Below, one piece after another: positions 18,990 through 44,981 of a stretch of 64,000 bases of DNA (positions within the stretch are counted from its first letter, which is position 1; the number at the start of each line of letters is the position of its first letter). The translations under genes were made by a program, and so were the position numbers. The DNA is from Patescibacteria group bacterium (GTDB lineage: Bacteria > Patescibacteriota > Patescibacteriia > JAXHNJ01), in assembly GCA_043812155.1 (NCBI GenBank), contig JBDRMK010000017.1:13824-77823 (forward strand), read 5' to 3'. The notes below the pieces were generated by a model. That model made no database searches. It saw only the letters and a list, made by a program, of their open reading frames with translations, and was not told where the DNA came from.

Positions 18990-18991
18990 AT

Positions 18992-23183: not shown

Positions 23184-24041
23184 TTATTTCTTTTCAATGA
23201 TTTCCTCAGAAAACAAAACAAAGTCAAATATGCCCTGGGAAGGTAAGATCCACGGGATGCTGGCGGATAAGGCAATCTTAGAATTCTCGTAAGTTCCTGT
23301 GGATTTCAAGGAAATCCGATTGGAAATATCCTTCTCGGCTCCCGCAGAAGCGCTATCATTGCTGAAGGCTGACACTTTTAAATAATCAATGTCGCAATAT
23401 AAGGGGGTGATTATCAAACGGTAATAATTACCCGCCAGAAAAGTGGTATTATTCCTTTCCGTGCAGGCGTAATTGCTTAAAGCGCAAGGATAAATATTTT
23501 CATAAGGATTAGTGGTGGCGTCAAAACCGCCCGTATTAGCCAAAGAAACGTAGCTTAATTTCAGCCAGCCAGACCCGGCGACCACGCCTTGCCCTAGGCA
23601 ATTATCCCGCCAATTTATTTTAATGGATTCCACGCCGCCGCCGCCAGACAAAGCATTCGGATCAAAAAGATCAATGGTTATTTTTTCATTCATTTTCAGA
23701 TGGCTTAAGGCGTATTTTTCCGAAGGACTGGCGGTCGTTTGCCAATTCCCTAAATTAGTCCCCTCAAAAGACAATAAAGAACTCCCATCCATATCCGTAA
23801 CCGTACTGCTTAAAGTTTCAGCCAGTGCATCTCTATTAGTTTTAATTACCGCCAATTTTGCTTCCAGACCGGTTTCCGCCGCGTAAAACGCGAGAATAGA
23901 ATGGTCAACATTAGTGGAATATTCGTGCTGATTGATGATCAATACGGAAACGCCAATCGCCACCGCCACCACCGTGGACATGATAAGCAGGGAAAGAAAA
24001 AGAGTGACCCCTTTTTGATTTTTTATTATCTTTCGCATCAT
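23184..24041 (-). CDS. Type IV pilus minor component, PilX-like (N-terminal TM)
   Basis: Start chosen at MMRKIIKNQKGVTLFLSLLIMSTVVAVAIG (PilX-type N-terminus). The listed upstream ORF start would overlap the next gene. Confidence 0.45.
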   Translation of the reverse strand: MMRKIIKNQKGVTLFLSLLIMSTVVAVAIGVSVLIINQHEYSTNVDHSILAFYAAETGLEAKLAVIKTNRDALAETLSSTVTDMDGSSLLSFEGTNLGNWQTTASPSEKYALSHLKMNEKITIDLFDPNALSGGGGVESIKINWRDNCLGQGVVAGSGWLKLSYVSLANTGGFDATTNPYENIYPCALSNYACTERNNTTFLAGNYYRLIITPLYCDIDYLKVSAFSNDSASAGAEKDISNRISLKSTGTYENSKIALSASIPWILPSQGIFDFVLFSEEIIEKK

Positions 24042-24045
24042 AAAT

Positions 24046-24729
24046 TTATCTTGAATATTGTCGGGAAGAAACCGTAATTTGCAATTTTGAGGTAAAAGCA
24101 TAGGGCTTGGTTTTTATTATCGTGCTGGTCCCCAAAACAATGGTCACTAAAGGCTGTTCTTGGGCAAGATAAACGCCTGTTGCTTCATTTAATTCAAAGG
24201 GATTTTCCGTCGGTGTAATCCAAATAAGAAATTTATCCACAGTGACGTTATCCGGAGTAACGGTCTCCCAATTGGCATAACCATTAACATCGGGTAAACA
24301 ACGGTCCGCTTTTTGATTTACGTCATTAACGATAAAAACGCAGGATTTAATGACATATCGGGTGGCCGTAACCGACACTCTCTCAAAAAAATACTGGTTA
24401 TTATCCTGGTCCCGGATAACTAGAATTTTATTTGAATTTTGATCGTATAATTCATTAAAATAGATTTTGTCAAGAGTGCTCCCATCACCGTTTGGGTCAT
24501 TGTAAAAATCATAATCAATCACGCCGGTACGCACCAGCCGCGCCATATCTTCCAGGTTATTCCTGGCGTCCACCTGGATCGTTTGGACATAATTTGTCCT
24601 TTTTTGGACTTTGACAATGGTAAAAAAAAGATCCACGCCAATAACCACGGTGATGGCGAAAATGGCGGTAGAAATCAAGAGTTCCAGCAAGGTGAAACCT
24701 TTTTTATTTGTTGATAAATTATTATTCAT
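24046..24729 (-). CDS. Prepilin-type N-terminal cleavage/methylation domain pseudopilin
   Basis: NKKGFTLLELLISTAIFAITVV, a class III signal peptide. Confidence 0.75.
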   Translation of the reverse strand: MNNNLSTNKKGFTLLELLISTAIFAITVVIGVDLFFTIVKVQKRTNYVQTIQVDARNNLEDMARLVRTGVIDYDFYNDPNGDGSTLDKIYFNELYDQNSNKILVIRDQDNNQYFFERVSVTATRYVIKSCVFIVNDVNQKADRCLPDVNGYANWETVTPDNVTVDKFLIWITPTENPFELNEATGVYLAQEQPLVTIVLGTSTIIKTKPYAFTSKLQITVSSRQYSR

Positions 24730-25312
24730 AGCGCCAGTTGGTCAAATCTTCTTCTAAAGTAATGATTTTGGCTTGGTTGTTTTCCAGCCATTTTACCTTC
24801 ACAATCACTTTTAAAATATTCGGGGTTGACGTATCAATTTTTAAAGCCCGGGAAAAACCGCTCAGTGTGCCTGAAGTTAAACTATAGGTGAAATAAGTTG
24901 AGTCAATTCTTAACTCGCAGGTGGCGCAGTTATTTATATACACACCGGCCGCCAAGGGAGTCTTAACCCAAGTCCAGACAGAACTGACTAATCGGTAATC
25001 AAGAGTGCACCAAACAGATGAGCAGCCGTCCAGTCCAGTATCCCAATCATAATATTCTACGGGCGGACCGGGATTTAACACCGTTCTTTGGCTTTTTTTC
25101 AGCCAATTGCTGTCTCTTATATTTCTCGCGTATTCAATCCCCTCCCGGGCCAGATTATAAGCGACCAGCCTATTCTGGCTTGAACGGCCTATTCTGGTCG
25201 TATATATGCTAATACCGATGGAGCTTATGACCACCGACATAACCAGGCCGATCGCCAAGATGCTTTCCATTAAAGACTGTCCGCGATATTTTTTTTCTGA
25301 AATTTTATTCAT
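24722..25312 (-). CDS. Pseudopilin-like protein with a degenerate prepilin motif
   Basis: YRGQSLMESILAIGLVMSVVI. Confidence 0.55.
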   Translation of the reverse strand: MNKISEKKYRGQSLMESILAIGLVMSVVISSIGISIYTTRIGRSSQNRLVAYNLAREGIEYARNIRDSNWLKKSQRTVLNPGPPVEYYDWDTGLDGCSSVWCTLDYRLVSSVWTWVKTPLAAGVYINNCATCELRIDSTYFTYSLTSGTLSGFSRALKIDTSTPNILKVIVKVKWLENNQAKIITLEEDLTNWRYE

Positions 25313-25324
25313 TTGATTGATATA

Positions 25325-26008
25325 TTATTGGCAAACCGTCCAACTGACGGCTTGCTCGTTTATCTGGCCGGTATTCTTCTTCACGTTTACTTTGCGGCAG
25401 ATATTTTTATCCTTTAATTTCAAAAAAATATCCACGCTTTTGGCGGACGCGACGCCGGGATAACGCATGGCGGCGGCATCGCCTGTCCCTGTGTATGGCA
25501 TACGCATGGGCGATTTAAAAGAAACATCAAAAATTGAACCCGCAATCGCCTGATTTGTATTAACCAGTATTTTATGAACTATCACTCCTTCATGCAAAAA
25601 GATACCGCTACCCAACGGGTTTTCACCGCAGATGGGATTACTTAATAGATTGTCATAACGCTGGTTACCTTGAGTGTCATCACATAAATTGGTAGTGCTA
25701 TTCACCGAATAGGTATCGGCAAAAATAAAATATTCGGTATTTGCCGGATTAACCAAGTCCAGATTAAAATGCACTCCGTATCCGCCGACCGGAACAATGC
25801 CTGATACCGCGTAACCGGTTAAGGCGTAATTTTGGGCTTTTTGCAGGGTGCTGACTAATTCCAAGGCGCTCTGCCGCAGTCTTTCCAGTTTTCGGGTGTC
25901 CATAAAACCGGAAAGAACAATGCCCATGAGAATCGCGAAGATGCCAAAGGATATCAAAATCTCAATCAGAGTGAAGCCATTTTTTAAATAACGGTTATGT
26001 TTTCCCAT
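25325..26008 (-). CDS. Prepilin-type pseudopilin
   Basis: KNGFTLIEILISFGIFAILMGIV. Confidence 0.75.
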   Translation of the reverse strand: MGKHNRYLKNGFTLIEILISFGIFAILMGIVLSGFMDTRKLERLRQSALELVSTLQKAQNYALTGYAVSGIVPVGGYGVHFNLDLVNPANTEYFIFADTYSVNSTTNLCDDTQGNQRYDNLLSNPICGENPLGSGIFLHEGVIVHKILVNTNQAIAGSIFDVSFKSPMRMPYTGTGDAAAMRYPGVASAKSVDIFLKLKDKNICRKVNVKKNTGQINEQAVSWTVCQ

Positions 26009-26788
26009 TTATAAATTAAAAAGCGGATCTAAGAAACTGCCCTCCAGATACCAATCTATGATCGCCTGCCCGAAAATCAGGCAGACAAAAGCGGCCACTA
26101 CCAGAAAAGGGCCGAAAGGCAAGCGGCTTTTCATTGTTTTCCGGCGGAAGATAATCAGAAACAGGGAAACCAGGGAACCGGAAATATAAGCCAGGAAAAG
26201 AGCCGCCAATAATTTTTGCCAGCCTAAAGCGGCGCCCATCAGGCCGCCGAGCCGGATATCGCCGCCGCCGACCCATTTGCCGCGCGACAAAGTAAACTGC
26301 AGGAAAAAAAACCCGGCTCCGATGACCAGGCCGATGAGAATTTCCAAAACCGGCATTTTTAAGATCAGGCTGAAAATAAAAGCCAAAAACAAGGCCGGCA
26401 GAGAAACTTTATCAAGGATCAGGTGATATTTAAGATCGTAGACAAAAATCAAGGCCAGAAAAGCGGTTATAATTAAGTAAAAGACAAATTGAAGCGACCA
26501 GCCATAGGTAAAATAGATAATAACAAATGAAACCGCGACGAAAAATTCCACCAGCGGGTATTGCCAGGAAATTTTTTTATCGCAGTAGCGGCAGCGGCCG
26601 CCGAGCAAAATAAAACTCAAAATAGGCACTAAATCCATAGCTGACAGGGAATGCCCGCACTGGGGGCAAAAAGAACGGCCACGGATAAATGATTTTCCCT
26701 GATGCAAGCGGTAGATCACCGCGTTTAAAAAACTGCCGACAATGAGGCCGAAAATTATAACTAATAAATAATATCCCAGATTATTCAT
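26009..26788 (-). CDS. pilD: Prepilin peptidase (A24 family)
   Basis: N-terminal CPQCGH...CRYC zinc-binding region and polytopic membrane core; 259 aa. Confidence 0.85.
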   Translation of the reverse strand: MNNLGYYLLVIIFGLIVGSFLNAVIYRLHQGKSFIRGRSFCPQCGHSLSAMDLVPILSFILLGGRCRYCDKKISWQYPLVEFFVAVSFVIIYFTYGWSLQFVFYLIITAFLALIFVYDLKYHLILDKVSLPALFLAFIFSLILKMPVLEILIGLVIGAGFFFLQFTLSRGKWVGGGDIRLGGLMGAALGWQKLLAALFLAYISGSLVSLFLIIFRRKTMKSRLPFGPFLVVAAFVCLIFGQAIIDWYLEGSFLDPLFNL

Positions 26789-26890
26789 AGCGTTATTATA
26801 CCATATTTTGCCGATATAAAAAAGCGGCCTGGCAGACTAAGTATTTTAGCGCTACTGCCTTTTCAAACCGGCTTTCTTGTTTTTAAATGT

Positions 26891-26947
26891 GGACGCCACT
26901 AAAGTGGCTATGAAGATAAACTTCCCAGCGAATTCATTCGCGTACGC
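26891..26947 (+). repeat. REP-like palindromic repeat unit (GGACGCCACTnAAGTGGCTATGAAG...CAGCGAATTCATTCGCGTACGC), copy A
   Basis: Two palindromic modules (GCCACT..AGTGGC and GCGAAT..ATTCGC/CGCGTACGCG). Overlaps the 3' end of the transposase gene. Copies recur at 27519-27641, 30272-30330 and 53950-53972. Confidence 0.7.
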
Positions 26948-27473
26948 TTTTGCCAAAATTATTTTTAATAAATTCCTCGTCGGTTATTTGAATTACCGAT
27001 TGAATATAATTATCAATATTTCCCTTACCTATTATTTTTATCAACGAGGAATAACTTGAAAATGGGTATTTTTCTAACTTCTTAAGCGTTTTCACCTCCT
27101 TATGCTTTAAGGGATTTCCCGCGACGTAACCGATAACTTTGCTCAACAAAATATCACTCTCAATTAAATACACGTGGTATTCACCCCAAACTGGTTTTTT
27201 GTTGCCTGTTATTTTATTCAAGCGGTAAGCGCTAACACCATAAATATGTTTTAAAATTTTGGGGATAATCCCGGCATTATTATAAAATGAAACAAAATGA
27301 TAATGATTTGACATTATGCTAAAATTAAAATCTTTTAGTTTATTAATTCCAATCGCGGATTTTATCTGATTAAGTATCAAGTTTTTCTTCAAAAATGTGT
27401 CAAAAAAATGATAGCGATAGGCGGTTGGAACGGTTATAAAATAATATGAATGGTTGACAAAATATCTGGACAT
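26934..27473 (-). mobile_element. IS200/IS605-like HUH (Y1) transposase, REP-associated tyrosine transposase (RAYT) type
   Basis: 179 aa with the HUH motif in SNHYHFV and catalytic Tyr in YVAGNPLKH. Flanked on both sides by REP-like palindromes. Confidence 0.6.
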
Positions 27474-27518
27474 AAATAATCTATTAATACTGATCTAATC
27501 GAATAAATTTTTAATGGC

Positions 27519-27641
27519 GGACGCCACTGAAGTGGCTATGAAGGTAAACTTCTCAGCGAATTCATTCGCGTACGCGTTTTGATTTTCGGACGCCACTGAA
27601 GTGGCTGTGAAAAAATAGGCAGGAAAGTGGCTATGAAAAAA
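27519..27641 (+). repeat. REP-like repeat cluster, copy B (module1-module2-module1'-partial)
   Basis: GGACGCCACTGAAGTGGCTATGAAGGTAAACTTCTCAGCGAATTCATTCGCGTACGCG, then GGACGCCACTGAAGTGGCTGTGAAA and GGAAAGTGGCTATGAAAAAA. Confidence 0.7.
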
Positions 27642-27686
27642 TCGGCTGTTTGTTAATAACACCCTTGGCTAAATTTAAAAAAAGTC

Positions 27687-28100
27687 TTATTTAATTCCTT
27701 CCGCGGATAACGTATGTTTGCCCTTAGCCAGGCGGTCATAGCCTTTTTCCAAAGTAAAAGTCACTTCAAAATCTTTCTCACCCGGCACTTTGGTCACCTG
27801 GTATTGGTATTTGCCCGGATCCTTGATTTGAGCGATATTTGCAAGGTAAGCGGAAAGATCGCACGCGGAAACCAAACTGCCAACCTGACGGCAGCCTTCG
27901 CCAGCCTGCGCGTAGGAATTTGTTTCGTTAAAAAGAACTTCAAATCCGAAACGGACTTGAGCCATATCCGCCATTCTTTTGGCGTCCCGCGTCCTGGCCC
28001 TTTCCTGATTTAGCAAAAGCACGCCAAAAATAATAACGATCAACAGCAAACCGGTAAATATGATCAGTTCTTTTAACGAAAAGCCTTTTTGGTCTTTCAT
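27687..28100 (-). CDS. Type IV pilin-like protein (second pilin)
   Basis: KGFSLKELIIFTGLLLIVIIFGVLLL prepilin-type N-terminus, with a C-terminal Cys pair. Confidence 0.65.
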   Translation of the reverse strand: MKDQKGFSLKELIIFTGLLLIVIIFGVLLLNQERARTRDAKRMADMAQVRFGFEVLFNETNSYAQAGEGCRQVGSLVSACDLSAYLANIAQIKDPGKYQYQVTKVPGEKDFEVTFTLEKGYDRLAKGKHTLSAEGIK

Positions 28101-28298
28101 ATTTATATTGTATCATAATATATAATTTCCAGCCAATACACCAGTCGCGCGGCCAGCCAGGATCAAAAATACTATACTATTGAAAAAATAAATACTAAAA
28201 GGTAAAAACAAATACATAAACTCAAAAAAATGTTAGAAAAAATAATAAGGGCAAAACTTTTTAAGTACAGCCCTTATTATTAATACTATATAACTTGC

Positions 28299-28808
28299 TT
28301 AGAATCCGCAATTTGATATTGGCGTTCCAGAAGCTGGCTCCGTTGATATTTCACCACTACCTCCTTCAGAATTCAGATAGTAGAAATTCTCCGCGCCACC
28401 TTCCAATTGCGCATAAAGACAATATCCGACTCCAGCCCCAGGCAAAATGTAATTATATTGACATGCGCCTGCTGGACAAGTATTATTAGTAGGATCTTCT
28501 AAAACATTGCCAAGATATTCGTCATATATAGGATTGGTTCCTTCAGCGAGAACAAATATTGAACCTGCTGTATGGGCAACAGAATCGCCGGCGGTCGGTG
28601 GATAAGCATTTGGGGTCTGATCATCATAAAATAAAGTCAAAGCCGTCCGAATCTGGGACAAGTCGGATTTTCTCTGGGCGTCTCTGGCCTTTTCCCGGGC
28701 GCCGTTTAAGGCGACCAAGCCGATAGCCGACAAAATACCGATGATGGCGATAACCACCAACAACTCAATTAAAGTAAAGCCTTTTTTTGTTTTTCTCATT
28801 ATTTTCAC
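28299..28808 (-). CDS. pilA: Type IV major pilin (PilA-like)
   Basis: [50 protein letters not shown]. Own SD GGAGGTG and a flanking terminator on the pilC side. Confidence 0.85.
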
Positions 28809-28960: not shown

Positions 28961-30244
28961 TTATATGGCCTGGGAAAGATTATACATCGGCATTAAAACG
29001 GACATGACAATGACCGCTACCGCCACGCCCATGATCACCAGGATCAAAGGCTGGATCAGGCTGACCAGGTTTTCCACCATATTTTCAAGCTCCCGGGCGT
29101 AAAAACCGGAGATCTTGTCCAAGATCAGGTCAAGTTTTCCGGTCTGCTCGCCAATGGCCATCATATGGGGCAGCATGATCGGAATCTCCTTGCTGCGGAT
29201 GAAAACCGAGGCAATGGATTTGCCGGCCTCCACTTCTTTTATTGTCTCCGAGATCAAGTCCTTATAAACGCGGTTGCCGATGATATCGGCCGTAATTTCC
29301 AAAGAACGGGTGAGGGGGACGCCGGAGACCAGAAGCGTGGCCAGGCTGCGGGCGAAACGGACCATGTAAATATTCTGGTAAATGCCGCCGAAGATCGGCA
29401 AGCGCATTTTTAGGCTGTCTATTTTTTTCCGGCCGGCAGGCTGGCGGTTGATGAAATTAAAAACAAACACCGCGATTATTATGACCAAAACCAGCAGCCA
29501 CCATTTGCTCTGCAAAAAGGCGCTTGTTCCCATGACCAGCTTGGTTGACCAAGGGAGCTCCGCTCCGCCTTGCGTTAATACTTCCGTCAGCTTAGGCATG
29601 ACAAAAATCATCATCAGAACTCCCACCGCGGACATGGCGACAATGATAAAAATGGGGTAAATCATCGCGCCCTTCATTTTGCTCACCAGGTCATAATCCT
29701 TTTCCTGCTGATCCGCCAAATAATTCAAAGTCTCGTCCAGTTTGCCGGTGGTTTCGCCAGACTTGACCATGTGAGTAAAAAAATCGGAGAAAACCTGCGG
29801 ATAACGGCCCAGGGTCTGCGACAACCGGGCGCCGCCGTCCACTTCATCCGCCACTTCAGAAAGGATGATCTTAAAATTAATATTCTTTGACTGCTTGACG
29901 AGAATGCGCAATGCCTGGACAATCGGCACGGTGGCGGAGATCAAAACGGCGAGCTGGCGGGAAAACATGACCACTTCTTTCCGCGGCACTCTTTTTAAGA
30001 AGCCGAAAGTCGACTGGAACAAAGTGATTTTTTTTCTTTCAGACAAAGCCAAAAGAACCAGATCGCGTTCTTGGAGCATTTCCTGGGCGACGTTCTCGGT
30101 CGGCGCCTCCACCGCTCCGACCAGGGTATTGCCTTCCCGGTCTTTAGCTTTGTAGTCGAATAAAACCACGCGTTTGTTTATTAATTTATTATATGATGTA
30201 ATTTTTTCGAGATGAGGAGAAAAAAACACGAAGACATCAGACAT
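28961..30244 (-). CDS. pilC: Type IV pilus platform protein PilC (GspF family)
   Basis: 427 aa with two GspF domains and three TM segments. Confidence 0.85.
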   Translation of the reverse strand: MSDVFVFFSPHLEKITSYNKLINKRVVLFDYKAKDREGNTLVGAVEAPTENVAQEMLQERDLVLLALSERKKITLFQSTFGFLKRVPRKEVVMFSRQLAVLISATVPIVQALRILVKQSKNINFKIILSEVADEVDGGARLSQTLGRYPQVFSDFFTHMVKSGETTGKLDETLNYLADQQEKDYDLVSKMKGAMIYPIFIIVAMSAVGVLMMIFVMPKLTEVLTQGGAELPWSTKLVMGTSAFLQSKWWLLVLVIIIAVFVFNFINRQPAGRKKIDSLKMRLPIFGGIYQNIYMVRFARSLATLLVSGVPLTRSLEITADIIGNRVYKDLISETIKEVEAGKSIASVFIRSKEIPIMLPHMMAIGEQTGKLDLILDKISGFYARELENMVENLVSLIQPLILVIMGVAVAVIVMSVLMPMYNLSQAI

Positions 30245-30394: not shown

Positions 30395-31468
30395 TCAACG
30401 TCTAAGCATCAGCTTTAAATTCTGCTTATCCACGGCATTGGCCAAGGCGTCATCAATCAGTATCTCGCCGGTCCTGACCAGTTCCACTAAAGAGCGGTCA
30501 AGGGAAATCATGCCCTCTTCCCGGGAGGTCTGCAAAATATTATTGATCTGATAGATCGCCCCTTCGCGGATGACCGAGCGGACTGGATCATTCGGGATCA
30601 TCACTTCCGCCACCGCGATCCGGCCCCCGCCCACCCGGGGCAGAAGACGCTGCGAGATCACTCCTTCAACCACACTGGCCAGCTGGGCCCGTATTTGCTC
30701 CTGCCTGTCTTCCGGAAAAAAAGAAATGATTTTTTCAAGGGTGCGCAAAACCGAATCCGTGTTCATGCTCGTAATGACCAGGCGGGAGGATTCGGCCGCG
30801 TTCAAAACGCTTTCCGCCACTTCCGGCGAATCCATTTCCGAAACATAGATCACGTCCACGTCCTCGTGCGAAGCGGTCCGCAAAGCCTGAGTAAAAGAGC
30901 GGGTGTCTCTTCCCACTTCCCGTTGCTCAATGATACTTTTATTGTTGGTAAAGACAAATTCAATGGGCTTCTCAATAGTAACGATATGCTCGGACCTGAC
31001 CTTATTAATGGTATTAATAAGGGCGGCCAGCGTGCCGGTCCGGCCGGAGCCAAAAGGACCGGTGATAACGACCAGGCCTTTTTCCAATTCCGCGAATTTT
31101 TCCACGACGCCGGGCAGGCCCAACTCTTTTATGGATTTAATTTGGGAAGAAATAAGCCTTAACGAAACGGACAGATTCCCTTTTTGGAAAAAAATGCTTA
31201 TTTTGAACCGGGCCTTATTGCCCATGGTATAAGCGAAAACGATCTCCTTTTCCTCGGCCAGGACTTTTTGCTGTTCTTTATCCAGGATAGAGGCGACAAA
31301 ATCATTTAAAAAATCCGTATTTAAAATCGGCTCTTTGGTGAGAGGGATCAGCTTGCCGTCCACCCGCAATATTGGCGGATTGCCCACGGAAAAATGAAAA
31401 TCCGAGGCTTTATACTCCGCCCCCGTAGCCAGTATTTTATCCAGGAAAATTTTTTCAGACGCCTGCAT
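30395..31468 (-). CDS. PilT-like ATPase with degenerate catalytic motifs (probable pseudo-ATPase)
   Basis: Compared with PilT motifs recalled from memory: Walker A GPFGSGRTGT (Lys replaced by Arg143), the Asp box DVDVIYVSEMDS replaces DPDIILVGEMRD, and the His box SRLVITSMNT replaces GHLVFGTLHT (both His lost). Confidence 0.75.
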   Translation of the reverse strand: MQASEKIFLDKILATGAEYKASDFHFSVGNPPILRVDGKLIPLTKEPILNTDFLNDFVASILDKEQQKVLAEEKEIVFAYTMGNKARFKISIFFQKGNLSVSLRLISSQIKSIKELGLPGVVEKFAELEKGLVVITGPFGSGRTGTLAALINTINKVRSEHIVTIEKPIEFVFTNNKSIIEQREVGRDTRSFTQALRTASHEDVDVIYVSEMDSPEVAESVLNAAESSRLVITSMNTDSVLRTLEKIISFFPEDRQEQIRAQLASVVEGVISQRLLPRVGGGRIAVAEVMIPNDPVRSVIREGAIYQINNILQTSREEGMISLDRSLVELVRTGEILIDDALANAVDKQNLKLMLRR

Positions 31469-31865
31469 GCTTTTTCTTTATTATATTTTTTACTTTATCG
31501 ATCACTTCCGAAGGCATAAAATGAGCCTTGATCAGATAATCTTTCGCCCCCAGAGCAAAGCCTTTTTCCACGTCTTTTTTCTGGCCTAAATTAGTCAGTA
31601 AAATCACCGGGATGTCTTTTGTTTTTTTGTCTTTCTTCATCTCTTTCAGCAGGTCAAAACCGCTCATTTTCGGCAAGATTATATCAAGCAGGATCAGATC
31701 AGGCGGCTGGTCCTGGATCATTTTTAAGCCTTGTTTGCCGTCCGAAGCCAGCAAGACCTCAAAATCCTCCATTTCCAGTTTTTTTACGTACATCCCGGAA
31801 AGAAAAGTGTCGTCCTCCACGAGCATAACCCTGGCTTTCCGGTCTTTTGGTTTATTCTCAGTCAT
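31455..31865 (-). CDS. Single-domain response regulator (receiver only)
   Basis: RVMLVEDD, LLDIILPKMSGFD and K in LGAKDYLIK. Confidence 0.8.
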   Translation of the reverse strand: MTENKPKDRKARVMLVEDDTFLSGMYVKKLEMEDFEVLLASDGKQGLKMIQDQPPDLILLDIILPKMSGFDLLKEMKKDKKTKDIPVILLTNLGQKKDVEKGFALGAKDYLIKAHFMPSEVIDKVKNIIKKKHAGV

Positions 31866-31900: not shown

Positions 31901-33670
31901 TTAAGCGCGGGTGGCGTCCCAAACCTCCTCGATCGTGGTCATGCCGCGCATCGCTTTCACTATCCCGTCCTGCCGCATATAAAAGTTGCCTTGTTTGACG
32001 AACTCGGCTCTCATTTTTTCCATCACATCGCCGCCGCTCAAGATTATTTTTTTCATGCTTTCATTGATCTCCAAAACTTCAACAATGGCGATCCTTCCTT
32101 TGTACCCTGTGTTCTCGCAGCGGACGCAGCCCTTGCCCATGAACATCTTTAAAGGCTTGGTCATTTTTATGTCATCCGGCAGATTTTCTTTAGGGATGTT
32201 CTCAATCTCCTTCCAGACATCGGCCTCTAGTACAGGGGGCAGGGTGTATTCTTTTTTGCAGTTCGGGCAGATGCGCCGCACCAAGCGCTGGGCCATGATC
32301 AGGTTTAGGGAAGAGGTAAGCAAAAAAGGCTCGATCTTCATATCCGTCAAGCGCGGCACCGCGCCTAAAGAATCATTGGTATGCAAAGTGGAAAGAACGA
32401 TATGGCCGGTCAAGGCGGCGTGCACCCCGAGCTCGGCGGTCTCGCCGTCTCTGATCTCGCCGACCATGATAATATCCGGATCCTGGCGCAATATGGAGCG
32501 CAAACCGGCGGCAAAGGTCAGACCGACCTCGGGGTTAACCTGGCTTTGATTGACGCCGCTGATATAATATTCCACCGGATCTTCCAAAGTGATAATATTG
32601 ACTGACTCTTTATTAAGAATATTTAATAAAGCGTAAAGAGTGGTGGATTTGCCGGAACCGGTCGGACCGGTAATGAGAAACATGCCGTGCGATTTTTTGA
32701 TGTTCTCTTCCATCACTTTCAAGGCCTGGCCCCAGAATCCCAGCTCGTCAAGACTCGTCATCGCCGTGCTGGTATCCAAAATACGCATCACAACTTTTTC
32801 GTTGTTGATCAAAGGCAGGGTGGAAACGCGGTAATCAATATCACGATTCTCATAGGTCATTTTAAAACGGCCGTCCTGCGGCACGCGGGTTTCATCGATT
32901 TTTAAATTGGAAAGGACCTTAATTCTGGCCACGATAGAAGGATGAACATGCTTGGGCAAGACCAGAGAAGTATGGAGGATGCCGTCAATGCGGTAGCGCA
33001 CCCGCGTTTCATTGCTGACCGGCTCAATATGGACGTCCGAGGCCTTGCCTTCCACGGCGTGTCGCAGAATGACAGAAACCATCTTGGAAACCGGCGCCGC
33101 CCTCACCACTTCCTCCAGGCCTTCTTCCGCCAAAGAAACTTCCTTGAATTCAGCCGCCTCGGCTTCGGTCCCTTTCAGGGCTTCTTCCACTTCGGCGGAC
33201 AAATTCTCGTACTGCCTCAGTATATACTTTAGAGCCGAGGCGGAAGTGATAAAATATTTGATCTTAAAATGATTTTTGCGGGCGATATATTCAATCGCTT
33301 CCAAAGCCCGGAAATTCGAGGGCTCGACCATGGCCACGCTCACTTCGTCACCCGCTTTGTTAAAAGCCGCCATCCGATAATTTTTAGCCAGCTCGGCCGG
33401 AACGATATTTAAAATCTCGGCCCGGACGATGCGGCCGAAAAGATCGATATAAGGCAGATTATAAACTTTTGATTTAAGACGGGAAAAATCCTCTTCCCGG
33501 ATTATCTTGTTTTCTTCGATAATTTTTTCCGTGGTCTTGTGCTTTTTGGCCGCTTCTTCTTTTATTTCCTCGTACTGGGTGCGGCTGATCATTTTTTCCT
33601 GCAAAATAAGCTCCAGGAGTTCGTCTTCGCCGGCTCCGGCCTCAAAAGTTTGGTTGTCGTTTCTCGGCAT
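31901..33670 (-). CDS. pilB: Type IV pilus assembly ATPase PilB (GspE family), canonical motifs
   Basis: Walker A ITGPTGSGKSTTLYA, Asp box DPDIIMVGEIRD, His box GHIVLSTLHTND, tetracysteine CPNC...CVRC. Confidence 0.92.
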   Translation of the reverse strand: MPRNDNQTFEAGAGEDELLELILQEKMISRTQYEEIKEEAAKKHKTTEKIIEENKIIREEDFSRLKSKVYNLPYIDLFGRIVRAEILNIVPAELAKNYRMAAFNKAGDEVSVAMVEPSNFRALEAIEYIARKNHFKIKYFITSASALKYILRQYENLSAEVEEALKGTEAEAAEFKEVSLAEEGLEEVVRAAPVSKMVSVILRHAVEGKASDVHIEPVSNETRVRYRIDGILHTSLVLPKHVHPSIVARIKVLSNLKIDETRVPQDGRFKMTYENRDIDYRVSTLPLINNEKVVMRILDTSTAMTSLDELGFWGQALKVMEENIKKSHGMFLITGPTGSGKSTTLYALLNILNKESVNIITLEDPVEYYISGVNQSQVNPEVGLTFAAGLRSILRQDPDIIMVGEIRDGETAELGVHAALTGHIVLSTLHTNDSLGAVPRLTDMKIEPFLLTSSLNLIMAQRLVRRICPNCKKEYTLPPVLEADVWKEIENIPKENLPDDIKMTKPLKMFMGKGCVRCENTGYKGRIAIVEVLEINESMKKIILSGGDVMEKMRAEFVKQGNFYMRQDGIVKAMRGMTTIEEVWDATRA

Positions 33671-33687
33671 ACGATAATAATTTTATA

Positions 33688-33978
33688 TCAACGGGTAAAA
33701 GGGTTATCCTTACCTTTGTTAATATTTTGAAAATTTAAAGGCAGTTTTTCTTCGCCATAGCCTTCCAAGCCTTGGTAGTCTTTCTGGGAAAACAAATTTT
33801 CGTCAAAACTGCTGATTACGGGTAATCTTTTTATATAACCTGTGTCCGACGGGGTGGCTGTGTTTCCGGCCGGCTTTAATACACTATAGACCAAATAACC
33901 GCCAAAAATAACAAAGACGCCGATAATAACGGTAAAAGTAATGATTTTTTTTATATCTCTTTTTCTTACTAAGGCCAT
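33688..33978 (-). CDS. Small membrane protein, PilP-like position
   Basis: 96 aa with one TM, at the end of the pilMNO block. Confidence 0.35.
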   Translation of the reverse strand: MALVRKRDIKKIITFTVIIGVFVIFGGYLVYSVLKPAGNTATPSDTGYIKRLPVISSFDENLFSQKDYQGLEGYGEEKLPLNFQNINKGKDNPFTR

Positions 33979-33984
33979 ATGGAA

Positions 33985-34671
33985 TTAAGGCGTCTGATTA
34001 TTAAAATAATAGGTGATTAAATTTATATTATATTCACTTATTTCTCCGGCGGAATCACTTTTCGAGGGCGAAAAAGACAATGATTTAATATCCATAATTC
34101 TCAGCTCTTTTTCTAAATTGACTAATAATTTTTTCATATCATCATATTTTGAGCTGCCGGAAAACACTAAAGAAATATTAAGCGCGTAAATATTTTGCGT
34201 AACCGGCAAATTTTCCTTGGCTTTAACATCAGTTCCGGCTGCCCCCCCTAGATTGGCGGAAACGGCGGCCTGATTCAACGCCGCCAAACTTTCGCCTTCT
34301 GCTATATCAATGGAATTAAGGTTAAAATCCGCGCTGGCCGCGACTTCTTCCATAATAATAAACAGATCCTCAACTCCCTTTTCTGAAGGAAGGCTTTGTT
34401 CTAATTTATCAATATCGCTTGAGTTTATGGCTTGAAATTTATCTAAGGAATTTTTCAAGCGGACAAGATAATTTTCCGCATCCTCCTTGTTCTTCACCTC
34501 TTTATTATAGTCAAAAATACCCGTTTCTCTGACTTCAACCCACTTCGGCTGAATAAGGAGTAAATAACCGATAACGAGAACGACGACGGCGAAAAAAATC
34601 GCGATATAGATGAAGAAACGGCCTAATATTTCCGTTAATTTCCCGCCGAATTTTTCTATATTAATGGCCAT
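33985..34671 (-). CDS. PilO-like inner-membrane pilus alignment protein
   Basis: N-terminal TM, then coiled-coil, then a C-terminal domain. Downstream of pilM and the pilN-like gene. Confidence 0.5.
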   Translation of the reverse strand: MAINIEKFGGKLTEILGRFFIYIAIFFAVVVLVIGYLLLIQPKWVEVRETGIFDYNKEVKNKEDAENYLVRLKNSLDKFQAINSSDIDKLEQSLPSEKGVEDLFIIMEEVAASADFNLNSIDIAEGESLAALNQAAVSANLGGAAGTDVKAKENLPVTQNIYALNISLVFSGSSKYDDMKKLLVNLEKELRIMDIKSLSFSPSKSDSAGEISEYNINLITYYFNNQTP

Positions 34672-34701
34672 GATATTAAAAACTAAGTTAGGAATTTTTT
34701 A

Positions 34702-36444
34702 TTAATTTTGATAATTTTCAAGACTTAAAGCCGCTAGGTCTTTTAGAATTGTCTCCGCCACATCCGTCTTCTGCCCCGAATATTCAATCGCATATAATGT
34801 ATTGGATTTTTGAAAAATCAGTAAATAAGACCCGGTTAGTATAAAACCAGTGGATTCAACATATTTAGCTCTATCACCAATATCATTAATATCTTTTTTA
34901 TCGTCATAATTCCAGCCCAATACAGACAAATATGCGCCACCAAAAAAATCATGGTTGCTCACATTATCATAAGCCAGTGTCGCCTGTTCATTTGAAGCAA
35001 AAGAAAATATGTGTTGTTCTATAGTCACAACGGTATTTTCATCTTTAAATTCAATTCGATAACCATCATTCGCTTTTGCGCCTTCCGTAAACGTAAGCCA
35101 ATAATCATCAAATTTTTCTGAATCTGTTAATTGAAGATTTGAATTAATAGTTTTTACTTGTGTTTCGGTTAAAGCTAATGGTGATATAAGACTGCTAACC
35201 GAAATGCTGGCATTTGTATTAATATTTTCGTTAACGCTTGTATTAATATTCACGGAATTATTAGTATTACTATTAACATTACTGTTTGCCTCAATACTGG
35301 TATTAGTATTCGTGGTTGAGCCGCTCTCAATTTCTTCCTCTGTTTTATAAAAAATATCCGGGACCAGATTTAAGCTCACGCCAAAGTCCACTTGGCTGCT
35401 TAAGAGCGCTCCTTCAGGCAAAGCAATGGAAAGCGAAGCTGTTTCTCTTTGCGCCGAAGTAATGGATACGCTCTGGATAAAATCAGGCGCGTTTTTAAAA
35501 ACCACTAATTGTTGAGAGACTGTTTCAAAATCCGGGGCCGTCGCCTTTAAACTAATGGTCCCGGTGGTGGAAGCGTTAAAAGCGCCGGTATAGTAAACGT
35601 CAGGCAGGGTGTACTTTTCGAGCTTCTCAAAAAATTTAGTCCAATAAATATGCGTGCCGAGCAAAGACTTGATATTATCTATCCTCTGCTTCAATTCAAT
35701 GGTCTTTTTTTGCTCCTCTTCCCGCTTTTTTATCTGATCTTCAACGGCCAGTCTTTCCTTTTTCGCGTTATCAGTTTTTTCCACCAGATTTTTTTGGTAA
35801 AAAAACAAAGCAAAATAAGAAAGAGCGACCAGCAGGGCGGCGCCTAAAACGATCAATGAAAGATTGATTATTTTTTTTCTTGGCTCTTCGCGGCTAACCA
35901 ACTCTTCGGGCAGTAAATTTACCAGAAAAGACTGGTCTTCTCTTTTGTCCGCTTTTTCTTTTTTCTCCTTCTTGGGATTTATGGCCGGCGGCGGTTCGGG
36001 AGGCGACAGAGGAGCTGGAGAAGGTGAAGACGGTTTTTCTATTAAATCCTTCTTAAAAATATCTTCCGTGTTTTCCTCTTTGGAAAACGGCGCGGCCGGC
36101 GGAGGAGGAGAAAACGGCTCATCTTCTTTTTCTTGAGGATCTTTTTCAAAAATGTCCTCAACATTCTCTTCTTTATGATAAGGAGTGACCGAAGAGGAAA
36201 ACGGAGTGGGGGTCGCCTTTTTTACGATTTTTTCCTCGACAATGCCCGGTTCTGACTCTATTTTCGGTTTTCGCGAAAAAAAAGATCTAAAAAACATAGA
36301 CAGGGAAGAAGGCGCCTTCGCTTCTCCGGGCGATTTTTCTTCCTTTGGCGGATGGGTTAAAGAAAAAGAAGTATTTTCATCTTTTTCTTTTTTCCTTTTC
36401 GGCTCCGGTCGCAGGGTATTTTTTATTAAATTAATATCAGGCAT
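34702..36444 (-). CDS. PilN-like protein with a long disordered Pro/Glu/Lys-rich N-terminus and an Asn-rich low-complexity insert
   Basis: 580 aa with a central TM (LIVLGAALLVALSYFALFFY), a PilN-like fimbrial assembly region and an Asn/Ser/Thr-rich tract (NSNVNSNTNNSVNINTSVNENINTN). Confidence 0.45.
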   Translation of the reverse strand: MPDINLIKNTLRPEPKRKKEKDENTSFSLTHPPKEEKSPGEAKAPSSLSMFFRSFFSRKPKIESEPGIVEEKIVKKATPTPFSSSVTPYHKEENVEDIFEKDPQEKEDEPFSPPPPAAPFSKEENTEDIFKKDLIEKPSSPSPAPLSPPEPPPAINPKKEKKEKADKREDQSFLVNLLPEELVSREEPRKKIINLSLIVLGAALLVALSYFALFFYQKNLVEKTDNAKKERLAVEDQIKKREEEQKKTIELKQRIDNIKSLLGTHIYWTKFFEKLEKYTLPDVYYTGAFNASTTGTISLKATAPDFETVSQQLVVFKNAPDFIQSVSITSAQRETASLSIALPEGALLSSQVDFGVSLNLVPDIFYKTEEEIESGSTTNTNTSIEANSNVNSNTNNSVNINTSVNENINTNASISVSSLISPLALTETQVKTINSNLQLTDSEKFDDYWLTFTEGAKANDGYRIEFKDENTVVTIEQHIFSFASNEQATLAYDNVSNHDFFGGAYLSVLGWNYDDKKDINDIGDRAKYVESTGFILTGSYLLIFQKSNTLYAIEYSGQKTDVAETILKDLAALSLENYQN

Positions 36445-36453
36445 AATATATTC

Positions 36454-37539
36454 TTAAACAACTTCTCTTAAAGCCAGGCCCGAGGCGACTGCGAAACGGG
36501 GGCCGATTTCCTCCAGGACCGGTTTTAATTCTTCGGGGTAAGCCACTCTCGCCCAGGGATCGCCGATAATTGTTTTAATCTGGAAAAAATTGGATATATA
36601 ATCGGTCAGCCCCGGCAAAAAAGACGAGCCGCCGGCCAGAACTATTTTCTCCACCGGCACATCCTCTACATTATGATAAAGATTGAAGCAATGCTTGACT
36701 TCATTGGTAATAGAGGAAATGACAAATTCAATGGTTTTAGGAATCTGGCTTTGAGGATTAGAACCGGCGGAAAGGCCAAAATCCCTTTTAAACTGTTCCG
36801 CTCGCGCTAAATCAATATTCAAAGCGTTGGCGATGGCCTTGGTTATCGTTTCCCCGCCCACGTCAATCCCGCGGTTTAAAATCGGCACCCCTTCATAAAT
36901 GATGCAGATATTGGTGGCTAAAGCGCCGATATCAATGATCATAACCGGGGAAGGATCGGCTCCGATCAACGAGCGTTCCAGGGCGAAAGCTTCCGTCTCC
37001 AGGCTCACGATCTGCAAGTTAAGGGCCTTAAAAATTTCAATATATCTTTTAACCAGATTCTTGGGGGCGGCAGTCAATAATATTTTCAGATTTTTTGCCA
37101 TTTCCTTTGACTTCATGGCCATTGTCGGTGTCGTGTCCCGTCTAGGGCCGGCTAATTCTTTCAATAACCGCCAGTCTAATACCATTTCATCCAAAGGCAT
37201 GGGCACGAATTTCTTCGCCTCCCAGCGGATAGCGGCATTCAGATCCTTGTTGGACATCGCCGGCAGGGAAATTATTGAGGAAAAAACCGTAAAAGAAGGC
37301 AGGGCGGCCACGACTTTCGTGGCGGTGGCCCGGCTTTTTTTGATCAATTCCTTTAAAAGCTTGACGGTGCGGGCCTGGGCGGCTTGCGAGTCCGCTTTGA
37401 TAATATCAGTCGGTTCTTCAATAAAACCATACGTAATAAGCCTTGGTTCGCCGCTCCCGCCGGATAATTCCACTAATTTAAGGGAGGAAGTGCCTAAATC
37501 CAGACCAAGATAGCTTTTTTTACCCCCAAAAAGGGCCAT
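36454..37539 (-). CDS. pilM: Type IV pilus assembly protein PilM (actin-like ATPase)
   Basis: SYLGLDLGTSSLKLVEL and IDIGALATNICI, an actin/HSP70 fold. Confidence 0.85.
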   Translation of the reverse strand: MALFGGKKSYLGLDLGTSSLKLVELSGGSGEPRLITYGFIEEPTDIIKADSQAAQARTVKLLKELIKKSRATATKVVAALPSFTVFSSIISLPAMSNKDLNAAIRWEAKKFVPMPLDEMVLDWRLLKELAGPRRDTTPTMAMKSKEMAKNLKILLTAAPKNLVKRYIEIFKALNLQIVSLETEAFALERSLIGADPSPVMIIDIGALATNICIIYEGVPILNRGIDVGGETITKAIANALNIDLARAEQFKRDFGLSAGSNPQSQIPKTIEFVISSITNEVKHCFNLYHNVEDVPVEKIVLAGGSSFLPGLTDYISNFFQIKTIIGDPWARVAYPEELKPVLEEIGPRFAVASGLALREVV

Positions 37540-37620: not shown

Positions 37621-40600
37621 TTACGGAGAAACCTCGCTAATTTTCGGCAAAGCCTGGCTTAGATCCCGGAATCCCGGCGGCGGATTGAGCTGAACCCGGC
37701 CGTCATATATAAATAGTTCAGAGGGTTCAGGCGAAGAAATGGTACCTTTATAACGCCGGCCAAAACCAAATTCTTTGGCGATCATTAAGCCATATGCGGT
37801 TAATTTTTTATCGGCGGAGCCCATGCTTTGGACAATGATTTTCTTTTCAGAATAGTAAGCGCCTACCAACGTATCGACTGAAGGGCCAATATAAATATTG
37901 CCTTTGACATAAAAAGCGAGCGAAGCCAGTTTTTTCAGATTATCCACGTTTGTTGCCTTATAATTTATATTGCTTTCTATTATTAAATCGCCGTCAACAA
38001 CGAACAACCCAGAACCGTCAACAAGACCATTTTTAAAGATAAGGCCGGAAGTCAAAGTTAAATCACCCGGATGAAAACCCGCATAATCATTTTTATCGCG
38101 AATGCATATTACTCTTCCGTTTAAATCAATGTCATTGCCGCCGAAATATCCCGGCCCGGTTGATAAACTCCCCGAATAAGTTTGCGAGCATTTCGAAATC
38201 ATATCATTATAATCAACCCGGCCGAGAATACTGTTTGGCGCGGTATTTACCGGCAAAGTGAATTTCCGGTAATTTTGCACCAGCCAGGGGTTGGCGCTTG
38301 ATTGGGGTAATAAAAAAGAAGGATTCAAACGAGTGCTTGCCGATCCTTGAGAGGAAGAGCAAAAATTGACGATCCGGCCGGTGTCGCCGGCTAAAATAAG
38401 ATAGGTGGCGTTGCAGGCGTTGCCTTCTTCTTTGTAGCCGGGCGCTTTTGCCATTTCCTGCGACCCGACGCCTTTTTGGCCATATATATCTCCGTACAAA
38501 GTTTGCAGCCAAGCGGCGCCCGCCAGGCTGACCCGAGACATATCAACCCAGCCGAAATCCTCCGACCAGGCGTAGCCGTAAAAATTTCCGGCGTTTATAT
38601 CCGCGGATACGCCGTAGGCGTCGCAGCTTTCGCATTTATTGCAGGAAATATAATTTATTATCTCGCAAGTACCGGCTCCGCAATCATTGCTGTTATAGCA
38701 AGGATTACTGGGAATATTTGAGCAATTTCCGCGTTTACAGATGCCCCCGTTGCAATCGCTATTCCCAAGGCAAGGCCGGTAACGGAAAAGTTCGGGAGAG
38801 CTTGAAGAGCAGTAGCCGCTTGGAATGCAATCTCCCTGACCAATGTCTTGACAATGATCTTTGAGCGGATCTTCATTCACCACGCAGACTTCCTCCGGCT
38901 TGCCTTCGCAACGTCCGTCACCGCACTGGTTGTTAGAGCCATCGCATACATTGCAGGCATAATTTTCGCCTGGCTTAGTCACATCAATATTCAAGCCATC
39001 GCAAATTTTGCAAGTCATAAAAGCGTTGACCGTGTCAGGATTAGATAAAGTGCAGGCGTTGCAATTATGATAAATGTATTGGTCAGTCGGATTATTAATC
39101 TCCGGCGGAGCGGGCGGATTAGCAGGGCTGAAGTTCTGGCCGCCCCTTAATTTCAGCCAGCCGGCGGCCGGGGCATCAGCAAAATCCTTGTTCTTATATT
39201 CACAATTTTCAGAGATGCAGAATCCAGTACCGCAATCAGCGCCAGATAAACAAGCCTTGCCCGCATATTCGCCCAAAATACAAAATTTGCATTCATCATT
39301 TTTATAACAAGCGGTATCTTGGTGCGAACTGCACTGGCCCAGTTTAAACCGGCCCCAGCCAGTCAAGGCGTAACTTTGATAATCAAAAAAGGCCATGGCG
39401 TTATCTTCGTAGTCGCCTGCGGAAATAGTTTTTCCGCAAGGCGTATTAAAACTATTAAAACCGGAATCCGGGCAAACATTGCTAATTTTAAATTGATAAG
39501 GGCAGGCGGGCGGCTCACCGGTTTCATCCCGGTTAAACGAAAGCCAGCCCGCGGAAAAACAGCTTTTTGGATTATTGGCGCATAAAGCGCAGTCATCATC
39601 ATCATCACAGGTCAATGAATTATTATTGGAGCATACGACGGAAAAACACGTGGCGTCACTGCGTTCATTCGGATCAGTTACTCCAAGCCAGGCCTGGCCG
39701 GAAAGAGCGCCGACATCCTTATCCTGAAAACTGGGAGCCGGATCCCGGGCAACGCATGAATTTTGAGTATCCGCGGTTTCAGTTTCCTTCTTTAAATCAA
39801 CGCCATAAGAAAAAGTATTGCTCTCGCAAGAACCATTATTAAGGCAATTAAAGCTTATCCAGCCCATCGGCGCCTGGCGGGGGGTGCCATCGGCGCAAGT
39901 TTTTGTCAACAGGTTCGTCTGGCAGCTACCGCCGATATCAACGCAAAAATTATCGCAGTTATCGCCGCCCACATAAGCGTAACCGGCCGCATTGCCCGGC
40001 GAAAGTTTTAAGGCGACATTATCGCTGAGCTGGCCGGCGGTCGCCGATTGAAAATATCCGGCTGACCAGGTATGGGTCAGATCAAGGGAACTCATCCCAT
40101 ATAGGCGGCCGTTCTCCAGTTTGGGAACCGACTGGCGCGACCAATGCGAAGGATTATTATTCGCGTTCGCCGAAAAAATGGTCATGCCTTTGTCGCCGGA
40201 AAACCAGATATAAGGGGTGCCATTATCCAAACCGCCGGAAACAGCGTACATTTTTGTTTCCGGCTCGCTTGCCGGACGATAGGTGTCCCTTTGATTCCAG
40301 CTGCTGCCGTCATAATATAAATATTTTCGGCTGGAGATAGGGATATAGCCTTTGCCATCGCTGGTAAAAAAAACATCATAAAAATCCATGATGCAGTCGT
40401 TTTTCCAGGTTTTATTGGCCGTAACGGTTTCACAGGCCCACTCGCTGTTACCGGCGCAGAAACCGGAAGGCTGGCAAGGGCCATAATCTATGGGTGAAAA
40501 ACTCGTCTTTGCCCATGATATGCCTGATTTATTATAAATAATGGAATTCCCGCCCACGGCCCAACCGGTAGAATTATCGATCATATGCAGAGCCAAAAAA

Positions 40601-41295: not shown

Positions 41296-41325
41296 GGAAA
41301 AATTCTTGTCAAAAAATAGTTGGAT

Positions 41326-43269: not shown

Positions 43270-43309
43270 AACTAAATGGATTAATATAATTAATTAAAAT
43301 TAATATCGC

Positions 43310-44845: not shown

Positions 44846-44981
44846 GGAAAAGGATTCAAATTTTTGTTTATATTTATTCAATATCTGGCCAAAACGAGCT
44901 TTTGACAGCCGGGCGTCTAAACTATATAATAACATAAGAAAGACTATTTTGTCCAGGATAATACGAAACATAACATAACCT

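Follow-up and report, generated by a model that had tools for sequence, protein, structure and literature searches.

Attachment to hosts and uptake of DNA by the Patescibacteria, or candidate phyla radiation (CPR), are believed to depend largely on type IV pili. The closest described counterparts of the gene reported here are the PilT proteins of Aquifex (2ewv), P. aeruginosa (3jvv) and Geobacter (PilT4, 6ojx). The gene, which we call PilT*, belongs to the PilT family, has degenerate hydrolysis motifs and lies at 30395..31468 on the minus strand of a 64-kb window, by which we mean the whole stretch of DNA that was analysed, part of contig JBDRMK010000017.1 from a Patescibacteria group bacterium. 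In Geobacter (Gm) PilT, E164 is a Mg contact, the closed, catalytically competent interface has the contacts H230-T221, T221-T133 and R195-D161, and E204, H230, T221 and T133 make up a proposed proton relay (McCallum et al., PMC6858323). The second histidine of the His box (H230) touches the gamma-phosphate and has been described as conserved in all members of the family (PMC6858323).

Retraction by other means is also on record. Other systems have been shown to retract independently of a motor (bioRxiv 10.1101/497933; 10.1101/2021.03.09.434644), the Tad ATPase CpaF is a bifunctional motor that drives both directions (PMC11300603), and an engineered ATPase-dead PilT is still functional in Vibrio cholerae retraction (PMC6821130). 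Experimental work on Patescibacteria pili concerns the Saccharibacteria, whose PilT is canonical and for which conserved Walker A and B motifs have been reported (PMC11623550). CPR genome papers list PilT as a ‘retraction ATPase’ or under twitching motility and leave its motifs uncommented (PMC5220378, PMC6744442, PMC11809585). We found no published description of a natural motif-less PilT, or of a PilT pseudo-ATPase, in the open-access literature.

Results

A full-length PilT with altered catalytic motifs

The open reading frame (ORF) of PilT* is uninterrupted and full length, encoding 357 amino acids (aa). It matches the TIGR01420 pilT_fam profile at 356.2 bits (cutoff 319.1), with residues 9-349 aligned to profile positions 2-342 of 343, and its best match among solved structures is Aquifex PilT 2ewv (E=1.5e-84, residues 9-356). 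These matches place PilT* in the PilT/PilU family by descent. An AlphaFold2 (AF2) model built on 62 clade members has a predicted local distance difference test (pLDDT) score of 94.3 and superposes on ATP-bound Geobacter PilT4 (6ojx) with a template modelling (TM) score of 0.92 and a root-mean-square deviation (rmsd) of 1.9 Å. The two-domain PilT fold, an N-terminal PAS-like domain and a C-terminal RecA-like ATPase domain, is present in the model.

The motifs were read in register with 2ewv, in an alignment that is gap-free across the catalytic motifs, and the Lys and His positions are not shifted. Walker A (31031..31060, minus strand, residues 137-146) reads GPFGSGRTGT where 2ewv has GPTGSGKSTT, so that Phe139 stands for Thr and Arg143 for Lys. 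The Arg143 codon is CGG, seen on the plus strand as CCG at 31040-31042 and two nucleotide changes away from AAA/AAG. The Asp box (30956..30982, minus strand, residues 163-171) has changed from ITIEDPIEY to VTIEKPIEF, with Lys167 in place of Asp and Glu166 and Glu170 retained. Walker B (30827..30862, minus strand, residues 203-214) is DVDVIYVSEMDS, compared with DPDVIFVGEMRD in 2ewv; Asp203 and the catalytic Glu211 are retained, Gly has become Ser210, the Arg of GEMRD has become Asp213, and the Pro, the Gly and the following Arg-Asp are all replaced. In the His box (30758..30790, minus strand, residues 227-237), TGHLVFGTLHT corresponds to SSRLVITSMNT, with Ser227 for Thr and with Arg229 and Asn236 for the two histidines. 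The AIRNLIRE-like PilT signature further along (30560..30586, minus strand, residues 295-303, PVRSVIREG) is largely retained: the VIRE core and Ile300 are kept, the latter in 139 of 154 clade members, and the remaining AIRNLIRE positions are altered. Judged from these alignments, PilT* lacks three features by which a functional PilT ATPase is defined, namely the Walker A Lys, the Asp-box Asp and the His-box histidines.

These results agree in large part with an initial annotation of the window made from its letters, which had described an intact, full-length PilT-like ORF, a Walker A Lys replaced by Arg143 at 31040-31042, the loss of both His-box histidines and a canonical PilB. The neighbouring PilB does carry all four motifs intact (GPTGSGKST at residue 335, ITLEDPVEY, DPDIIMVGEIRD at 397 and GHIVLSTLHT at 422). 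What the annotation had taken for the Asp box, both in PilT* and in PilB, is Walker B; the true Asp box of PilT* is TIEKPIE. Its statement that all catalytic motifs are degenerated is right in that each motif has at least one substitution, and too broad in that the P-loop glycines, Ser/Thr144, the Asp-box glutamates, the Walker B Asp and Glu211 are kept.

Set beside the canonical PilTs of Aquifex, P. aeruginosa and Geobacter, to which it is 36-40% identical, PilT* has in common the length, the two-domain fold, the family hidden Markov model, the slot between pilB and pilC, the AIRNLIRE-like region and the ATP- and Mg-binding residues. It differs from them in Walker A Lys to Arg, Walker A Thr to Phe and Asp-box Asp to Lys, in lacking the Arg of LRxDPD, the Gly and Arg of GEMRD and both His-box histidines, and in the receiver-domain gene inserted in front of it. 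PilU likewise shares the TIGR01420 family and the fold, and PilU 9n32 is a strong structure match; however, PilU retains the Walker A Lys and uses ATPase activity (PMC6821130), whereas PilT* occupies the pilT position and has a PilT-like AIRNLIRE region.

The substitutions define a conserved clade

Among the cluster representatives compared, the 120 closest to PilT* (53-100% identity) come from Patescibacteria wherever a name is given. At the Walker A Lys position 104 of the 120 have Arg and 15 have Lys; 117 have Phe/Tyr for the Walker A Thr, 110 have Arg for the first His, and none has His at the second His position. The substitutions recur in independent assemblies at 53-89% identity to PilT*. 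A search of 1.84 billion representatives clustered at 50% identity gave about 45 degenerate proteins of about 355 aa among its best 150 matches; the others of those 150 have canonical motifs, and in many of these PilTs there is an N-terminal extension or a tandem duplication. Species genomes in GTDB were scanned with a 17-sequence alignment, and ORFs were called and classified in the loci of the best 80 of 599 stretches.

In a neighbour-joining tree of 86 PilT sequences, all 29 degenerate sequences fall into one split with support from 100/100 bootstraps; this split is next to the canonical PilTs of Patescibacteria, and its branches are visibly longer. Record names inside the degenerate clade include Candidatus Kerfeldbacteria, Buchananbacteria, Nomurabacteria and ‘Parcubacteria’, and canonical PilT is found at loci of Saccharibacteria and of Yanofsky-, Brenner-, Staskawicz- and Doudnabacteria. 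On our reading PilT degenerated once, in a sub-lineage of the Patescibacteria.

Comparison of the window with the orthologous locus L003 (80% amino acid identity) gave ratios of nonsynonymous to synonymous substitution (dN/dS) of 0.058 for PilT*, 0.062 for PilB and 0.117 for PilC; dS is saturated, so these ratios are approximate. Mean column conservation is near equal in the degenerate (0.575) and canonical (0.588) sets. By both measures PilT* is under purifying selection. The initial annotation had called the gene conserved rather than decaying, and the low dN/dS together with substitutions that define an entire Patescibacteria clade bear that out.

Two observations on these sequence sets stand on their own. 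Many metagenomic proteins of about 700-1000 aa (P0121-P0130, P0171, P0187, P0214, P0260) are tandem PilT-PilT fusions, and several have one degenerate half (domain 1 of P0122, with ‘GCLVLSSMNT’, and domain 1 of P0129 and P0214), which would make them covalently linked pairs of an active and an inactive PilT. Loci L008, L009, L013, L018, L027, L029, L042 and others are Patescibacteria-type pilus operons in records titled ‘uncultured Gammaproteobacteria bacterium’, and are probably mislabelled.

Residues kept and lost across the clade

The comparison covered 154 degenerate and 145 canonical sequences, with an 80% identity filter applied to each set. Kept in the degenerate set are G137 (154 sequences), G142 (153), Ser/Thr144 (152), R87 (152), E166 (153), E170 (153), Q182 (153), R183 (149) and D203 (143). 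Near-invariant in both sets are G137, G142, Ser/Thr144, T146, R87, E166, E170, Q182-R183-E184, D203, L275 and I300. Position 143 is basic in 152/154 degenerate sequences (Arg in 97, Lys in 55) and Lys in 145/145 canonical ones. The catalytic Glu at the Glu211 position is present in 106/154 degenerate sequences (69%), compared with 144/145 canonical sequences.

Positions conserved at 85% or more in canonical PilT and replaced in the clade are given here in PilT* numbering with the Geobacter residue after the stroke. The canonical Thr at 139/T133 is Phe or Tyr in 142/154 degenerate sequences; the Asp at 167/D161 (141/145 canonical) is K/R/Q; the Arg at 201/R195, which is the Arg of LRxDPD, is Q and others; the Pro at 204 is Val; the Gly at 210 is Ser; the Arg at 213, that of GEMRD, is acidic or other; and the Thr at 227/T221 is S/A/G. 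The first histidine (229/H223) is R/K in 134/154, and the second (236/H230) is N/E/D/S, with His in 0/154. Eight further replaced positions were flagged (77, 200, 214, 235, 240, 246, 249 and 304). None of the interface pairs T221-H230, T221-T133 and R195-D161 is left intact in the degenerate clade.

Read against the Geobacter structure, the clade retains the nucleotide- and Mg-binding residues and lacks those for gamma-phosphate sensing, hydrolysis and interface closure. Such selective retention points to a protein that binds nucleotide but does not hydrolyse it, rather than to a dead pocket. The initial annotation had proposed a non-catalytic PilT-family protein; given the selection and the clade, this is still the most reasonable reading, with the correction that the ATP- and Mg-binding residues are kept. 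All members of the clade have lost the His box, while the Walker A Lys survives in several sub-branches; the pattern suggests that hydrolysis was lost first and that the Lys then drifted to Arg, with a basic phosphate ligand still selected. We also considered Lys167 as a ‘relocated’ Walker A Lys and rejected this as a rule: residue 167 varies among clade members (K/R/Q/D/N), and it is K or R also where the Walker A Lys has been kept.

Gene order and orthology

Together with its neighbours, pilT* makes up a complete type IV pilus operon of Gram-positive style, encoded throughout on the minus strand. The order is three large ORFs lacking Pfam domains, then pilM, the ORFs at the pilN/pilO positions, a 96-aa ORF, pilB, the receiver gene, pilT*, pilC, pilins, an IS200-like ORF, pilD and minor pilins, followed by ligA. 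The canonical extension ATPase PilB (31901..33670) has, besides its four motifs, an MshEN N-domain and a CxxC...CxxC pair. The platform protein PilC (28961..30244) matches T2SSF at 188 bits and is hit by GspF/PilC models, and PilM (36454..37539) matches PilM_2 at 150 bits. Three ORFs occupy the PilN/PilO positions (33688..36444), one of 580 aa without a Pfam match, one of 228 aa with a weak PilO match and one of 96 aa; gene order across these positions is equal in loci L001, L003 and L005. Within 23184..28808, which also holds unnamed ORFs, are pilin and minor-pilin genes with N_methyl motifs (28299-28808, 25325-26008 and 24046-24729) and the prepilin peptidase gene pilD (26009-26788).

The order pilB-receiver-pilT*-pilC is found in the window and in 24 related loci. 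In Saccharibacteria locus L005 the order pilM-N-O-small ORF-pilB-pilT(canonical)-pilC-...-pilD-minor pilins is that of the window minus the receiver gene, and L006, a Patescibacteria locus with canonical PilT, shares with L003 the downstream run pilC-pilin-pilD-minor pilins-ligA-gatC-gatA. The Saccharibacteria, which are the experimentally studied Patescibacteria (e.g. TM7x type IV pilus locus 1), thus have the operon order of the window; they differ from it in a PilT that is fully canonical (76-82% identity among the top 120 matches) and in having no receiver gene between pilB and pilT. Since PilT* sits in the slot of the canonical Saccharibacteria PilT, gene order makes it a positional ortholog in the ancestral pilT slot and not a paralog. 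The word ‘paralog’ in the initial annotation does not hold, as PilT* fills exactly the pilB-(x)-pilT-pilC slot that canonical PilT has in Saccharibacteria and other Patescibacteria.

Three features of the operon deserve separate mention. The 96-aa ORF (33688-33978, minus strand) has no recognised domain, lies between the pilO-like gene and pilB and has 94-96-aa counterparts in L001, L003 and Saccharibacteria L005; it may be a conserved part of this operon in Patescibacteria that has gone unrecognised. The three large ORFs directly upstream of pilM (1224, 647 and 593 aa; 37621-45091, minus strand), for which the only Pfam match is weak and fn3-like, may be pilus-associated surface proteins; large ORFs without recorded Pfam families hold that position in L003 and in L001 (one of 1230 aa, complete, and one of 1567 aa running off the end of the locus). 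The 179-aa IS200-like ORF (26934-27473, minus strand; IS200-like Y1 transposase domain at 27.9 bits, cutoff 23) is inserted between the pilin genes and pilD, and the L003 operon has no recorded transposase domain there.

A CheY-like receiver upstream of pilT*

Directly upstream of pilT* is a gene for a stand-alone CheY-like receiver of 136 aa (31455..31865, minus strand; Response_reg, 84 bits), which the initial annotation had not mentioned. Its phospho-acceptor set is complete (D18, D19, D61, T91 and K113). Its final 14 nucleotides, stop codon included, overlap the start of pilT*. A closely related receiver-only gene stands in this place in 24/24 distinct operonic loci with degenerate PilT, as in the window, and the 24 receivers score 129-219 against the window receiver in phmmer. 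E17, D18, D19, D61, T91, Y/F110 and K113 are kept in all receivers beside degenerate PilTs, and these receivers are therefore predicted to be phosphorylatable.

The receiver-like ORFs upstream of pilT at eight canonical-PilT loci have lower scores, and in three the acceptor Asp or the Lys is missing. Given receiver-like ORFs at some canonical loci, the insertion of the receiver probably predates the degeneration of PilT and became fixed in the degenerate clade. As a separate observation, the pseudo-receivers encoded between pilB and a canonical pilT at L041, L070 and L076 have the acceptor Asp changed to Glu, and those at L070 and L076 also have the Lys changed to Leu or Arg.

PilG/PilH of Pseudomonas and the PixG/PixE-type regulators of cyanobacteria are likewise response regulators of a single domain, with type IV pilus motors as their targets. 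These presumably resemble the window in that an output-less CheY-like receiver is encoded with pilus motor genes. The window receiver differs from them in being translationally coupled to a degenerate PilT and in having no chemosensory genes nearby. The window holds a second stand-alone receiver gene (126 aa), located within 18396-19372 (minus strand) immediately upstream of a nucleoside-diphosphate kinase gene whose NDK domain matches in two stretches.

Further PilT-like genes

PilB and PilT* are the only two T2SSE-family ORFs of the window. No second PilT/PilU-type gene was found in the 64-kb window or within 10 kb of the 24 degenerate operons, and no assembly gave both a degenerate and a canonical match among the best 80 of the 599 GTDB stretches, which is weak evidence.

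Some Patescibacteria have a duplicated sub-branch of the degenerate clade (L013-L016, e.g. L016:10001-12136; proteins P0390-P0426, P0111 and P0119). It retains the Walker A Lys (‘GSFGSGKTTT’), is without both histidines (‘GRLVIANLEA’; pattern ‘GRLVIxNxEA’) and adjoins a pilM paralog at a site apart from pilB and pilC, where the genes run der-pth-pilT-like-pilM-mfd-dprA-topA. Patterns specific to this sub-branch recovered only 10 JGI metagenome loci, none of them on the 1,028,488-bp contig that carries an operonic PilT*. With so few loci, and none on the large contigs with an operonic PilT*, the Lys-keeping paralog does not appear to be a general partner.

Other genes in the window

Elsewhere on the minus strand, 58382-59596 and 61485-62813 encode two proteins with a T4SS_pilin domain, the first of which also has a VanY / peptidase M15 (D-Ala-D-Ala carboxypeptidase) domain; RadA/Sms-like, DsbA-like, RecG and ComF-like genes lie near them. 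A 456-aa ORF without a Pfam match (2794-4164, minus strand) stands between EF-G (4130-6205) and EF-Tu (1360-2544), overlaps the start of the EF-G ORF call and is an unusual insertion in the str operon region. On the plus strand, a single ORF (16464-17579) joins TruB pseudouridine synthase domains to a C-terminal NUDIX hydrolase domain.

Discussion

On balance we favour the view, to which we give somewhat better than an even chance, that PilT* is a positional PilT ortholog that was converted once into a nucleotide-binding, hydrolysis-impaired protein under the control of a response regulator. PilT* would form a PilT-type ring and bind ATP through its P-loop, using Arg/Lys143, Ser/Thr144, Glu170, Asp203 and Arg87. 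It would turn over ATP very slowly or not at all, and would be unable to run the hydrolysis-driven cycle of open and closed interfaces. It may dock on the PilC/PilM platform because its AIRNLIRE-like region is kept, and, loaded with nucleotide, may compete with PilB as a switch or brake. Pilus extension would then stop, and the fibre would shorten without a dedicated motor, or under PilB. The timing of PilT* engagement would be set by the phosphorylated CheY-like response regulator. The parts of this proposal are not equally secure. That ATP turnover is abolished or strongly reduced seems to us quite probable, and that nucleotide is still bound seems almost equally so. A functional coupling to the response regulator we consider slightly favoured by the conserved gene order. 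The proposed role as a PilB antagonist, or as a promoter of motor-independent retraction, is tentative and falls a little short of an even chance.

Several points weigh against the proposal. The loss of hydrolysis is read from sequence, and in this PilT* the Walker B Asp and the catalytic Glu211 are still in place; slow turnover is conceivable, with Arg143 and Arg229 contacting the phosphates instead. The link between receiver and PilT* is drawn from the conserved adjacency of their genes, a Pfam scan of 44 window ORFs turned up no histidine kinase, and 8 of about 25 canonical-PilT Patescibacteria loci also have a receiver-like gene in this place, so that the regulator is not exclusive to the degenerate form. 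Finally, the ‘no motor’ part fails if a canonical PilT or PilU exists outside the 64-kb window and the 10-kb surroundings of the operons.

Apart from the loss of the motifs itself, nothing favours regarding the gene as a decaying or functionless remnant, or the substitutions as sequencing or assembly errors, and we give this next to no credence. A frame intact at 357 aa, dN/dS of about 0.06, substitutions shared by independent assemblies at 53-89% identity, an Arg143 codon (CGG) two base changes from Lys and a highly confident structure model all stand against it, and on the frame, the selection, the assemblies and the codon we exclude a pseudogene or a sequencing error. PilT* could instead be a working retraction ATPase with a rewired site, in which Arg143 substitutes for Lys, Arg229 substitutes for the gamma-phosphate-sensing His and Glu211 activates the water. 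In favour of this are purifying selection equal to that on PilB, the intact Glu211, Asp203, Glu166, Glu170 and Ser/Thr144, and replacements that are themselves conserved (R/K143 in 152/154, R/K229 in 134/154). We judge this reading improbable. The catalytic Glu is found in only 106/154 clade members and is gone in 31%, so hydrolysis cannot be the conserved function of the clade. The second His, which contacts the gamma-phosphate (PMC6858323), is never His in the clade, and the three interface pairs are all disrupted. Walker A changes of this kind also generally cripple hydrolysis: Lys-to-Arg mutants such as RecA K72R bind ATP and hydrolyse it very poorly.

A third possibility is that PilT* serves as an adaptor that recruits an active ATPase, either a PilU-like or second PilT-like protein encoded elsewhere or a bidirectional PilB. 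It would then be a naturally occurring counterpart of the engineered ATPase-dead PilT through which PilU drives retraction. In V. cholerae, pilT K136A and E204A alleles give near-normal retraction by way of PilU and a pilT deletion does not (PMC6821130), bifunctional motors are known from the Tad system (PMC11300603), and some Patescibacteria have the duplicated Lys-keeping sub-branch, beside its pilM paralog near dprA. We nevertheless hold the adaptor to be unlikely, if less so than the rewired ATPase. There is no second PilT/PilU-type gene within 10 kb of the 24 operons or in the window; the Lys-keeping paralog also lacks both histidines; the paralog-specific scan placed none of its 10 loci on the 1,028,488-bp PilT* contig; and, more weakly, degenerate and canonical matches did not occur together in any assembly among the best 80 GTDB stretches. 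The V. cholerae alleles resemble our proposal in that a non-hydrolysing PilT is still relevant to pilus dynamics (PMC6821130), but they are laboratory alleles that rely on a co-encoded active PilU, whereas the state of PilT* is natural and ancient, with no PilU-like gene near the operon. For the mixed PilB/PilT hexamers that the initial annotation had suggested we found nothing in support, and published PilT and PilU are separate homohexamers (PMC6821130).

We return to a nucleotide-binding, hydrolysis-impaired PilT*. A machine that lacks a conventional retraction motor, as the initial annotation had also suggested, is conceivable. In its most far-reaching form, which we think rather unlikely, the only PilT in a large part of the Patescibacteria (Kerfeld-, Buchanan- and Nomurabacteria and other ‘Parcubacteria’) would be an ATP-bound, non-hydrolysing ring that is switched by a CheY-type protein at the pilus platform, and pili would retract or stop extending without a retraction motor. 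If this were true, a natural conversion to a pseudo-enzyme would have taken place in a family said to have the catalytic His in every member.

The source organisms are uncultured, and the PilT* proteins are small and soluble. If the PilT of this large sub-lineage cannot hydrolyse ATP, inferences of retraction and twitching will need to be revised for that sub-lineage. The clade would then be a natural experiment on the role of the PilT ring beyond the burning of ATP, and would inform our understanding of motor-independent or PilB-driven retraction and of signalling from single-domain response regulators to pilus motors.

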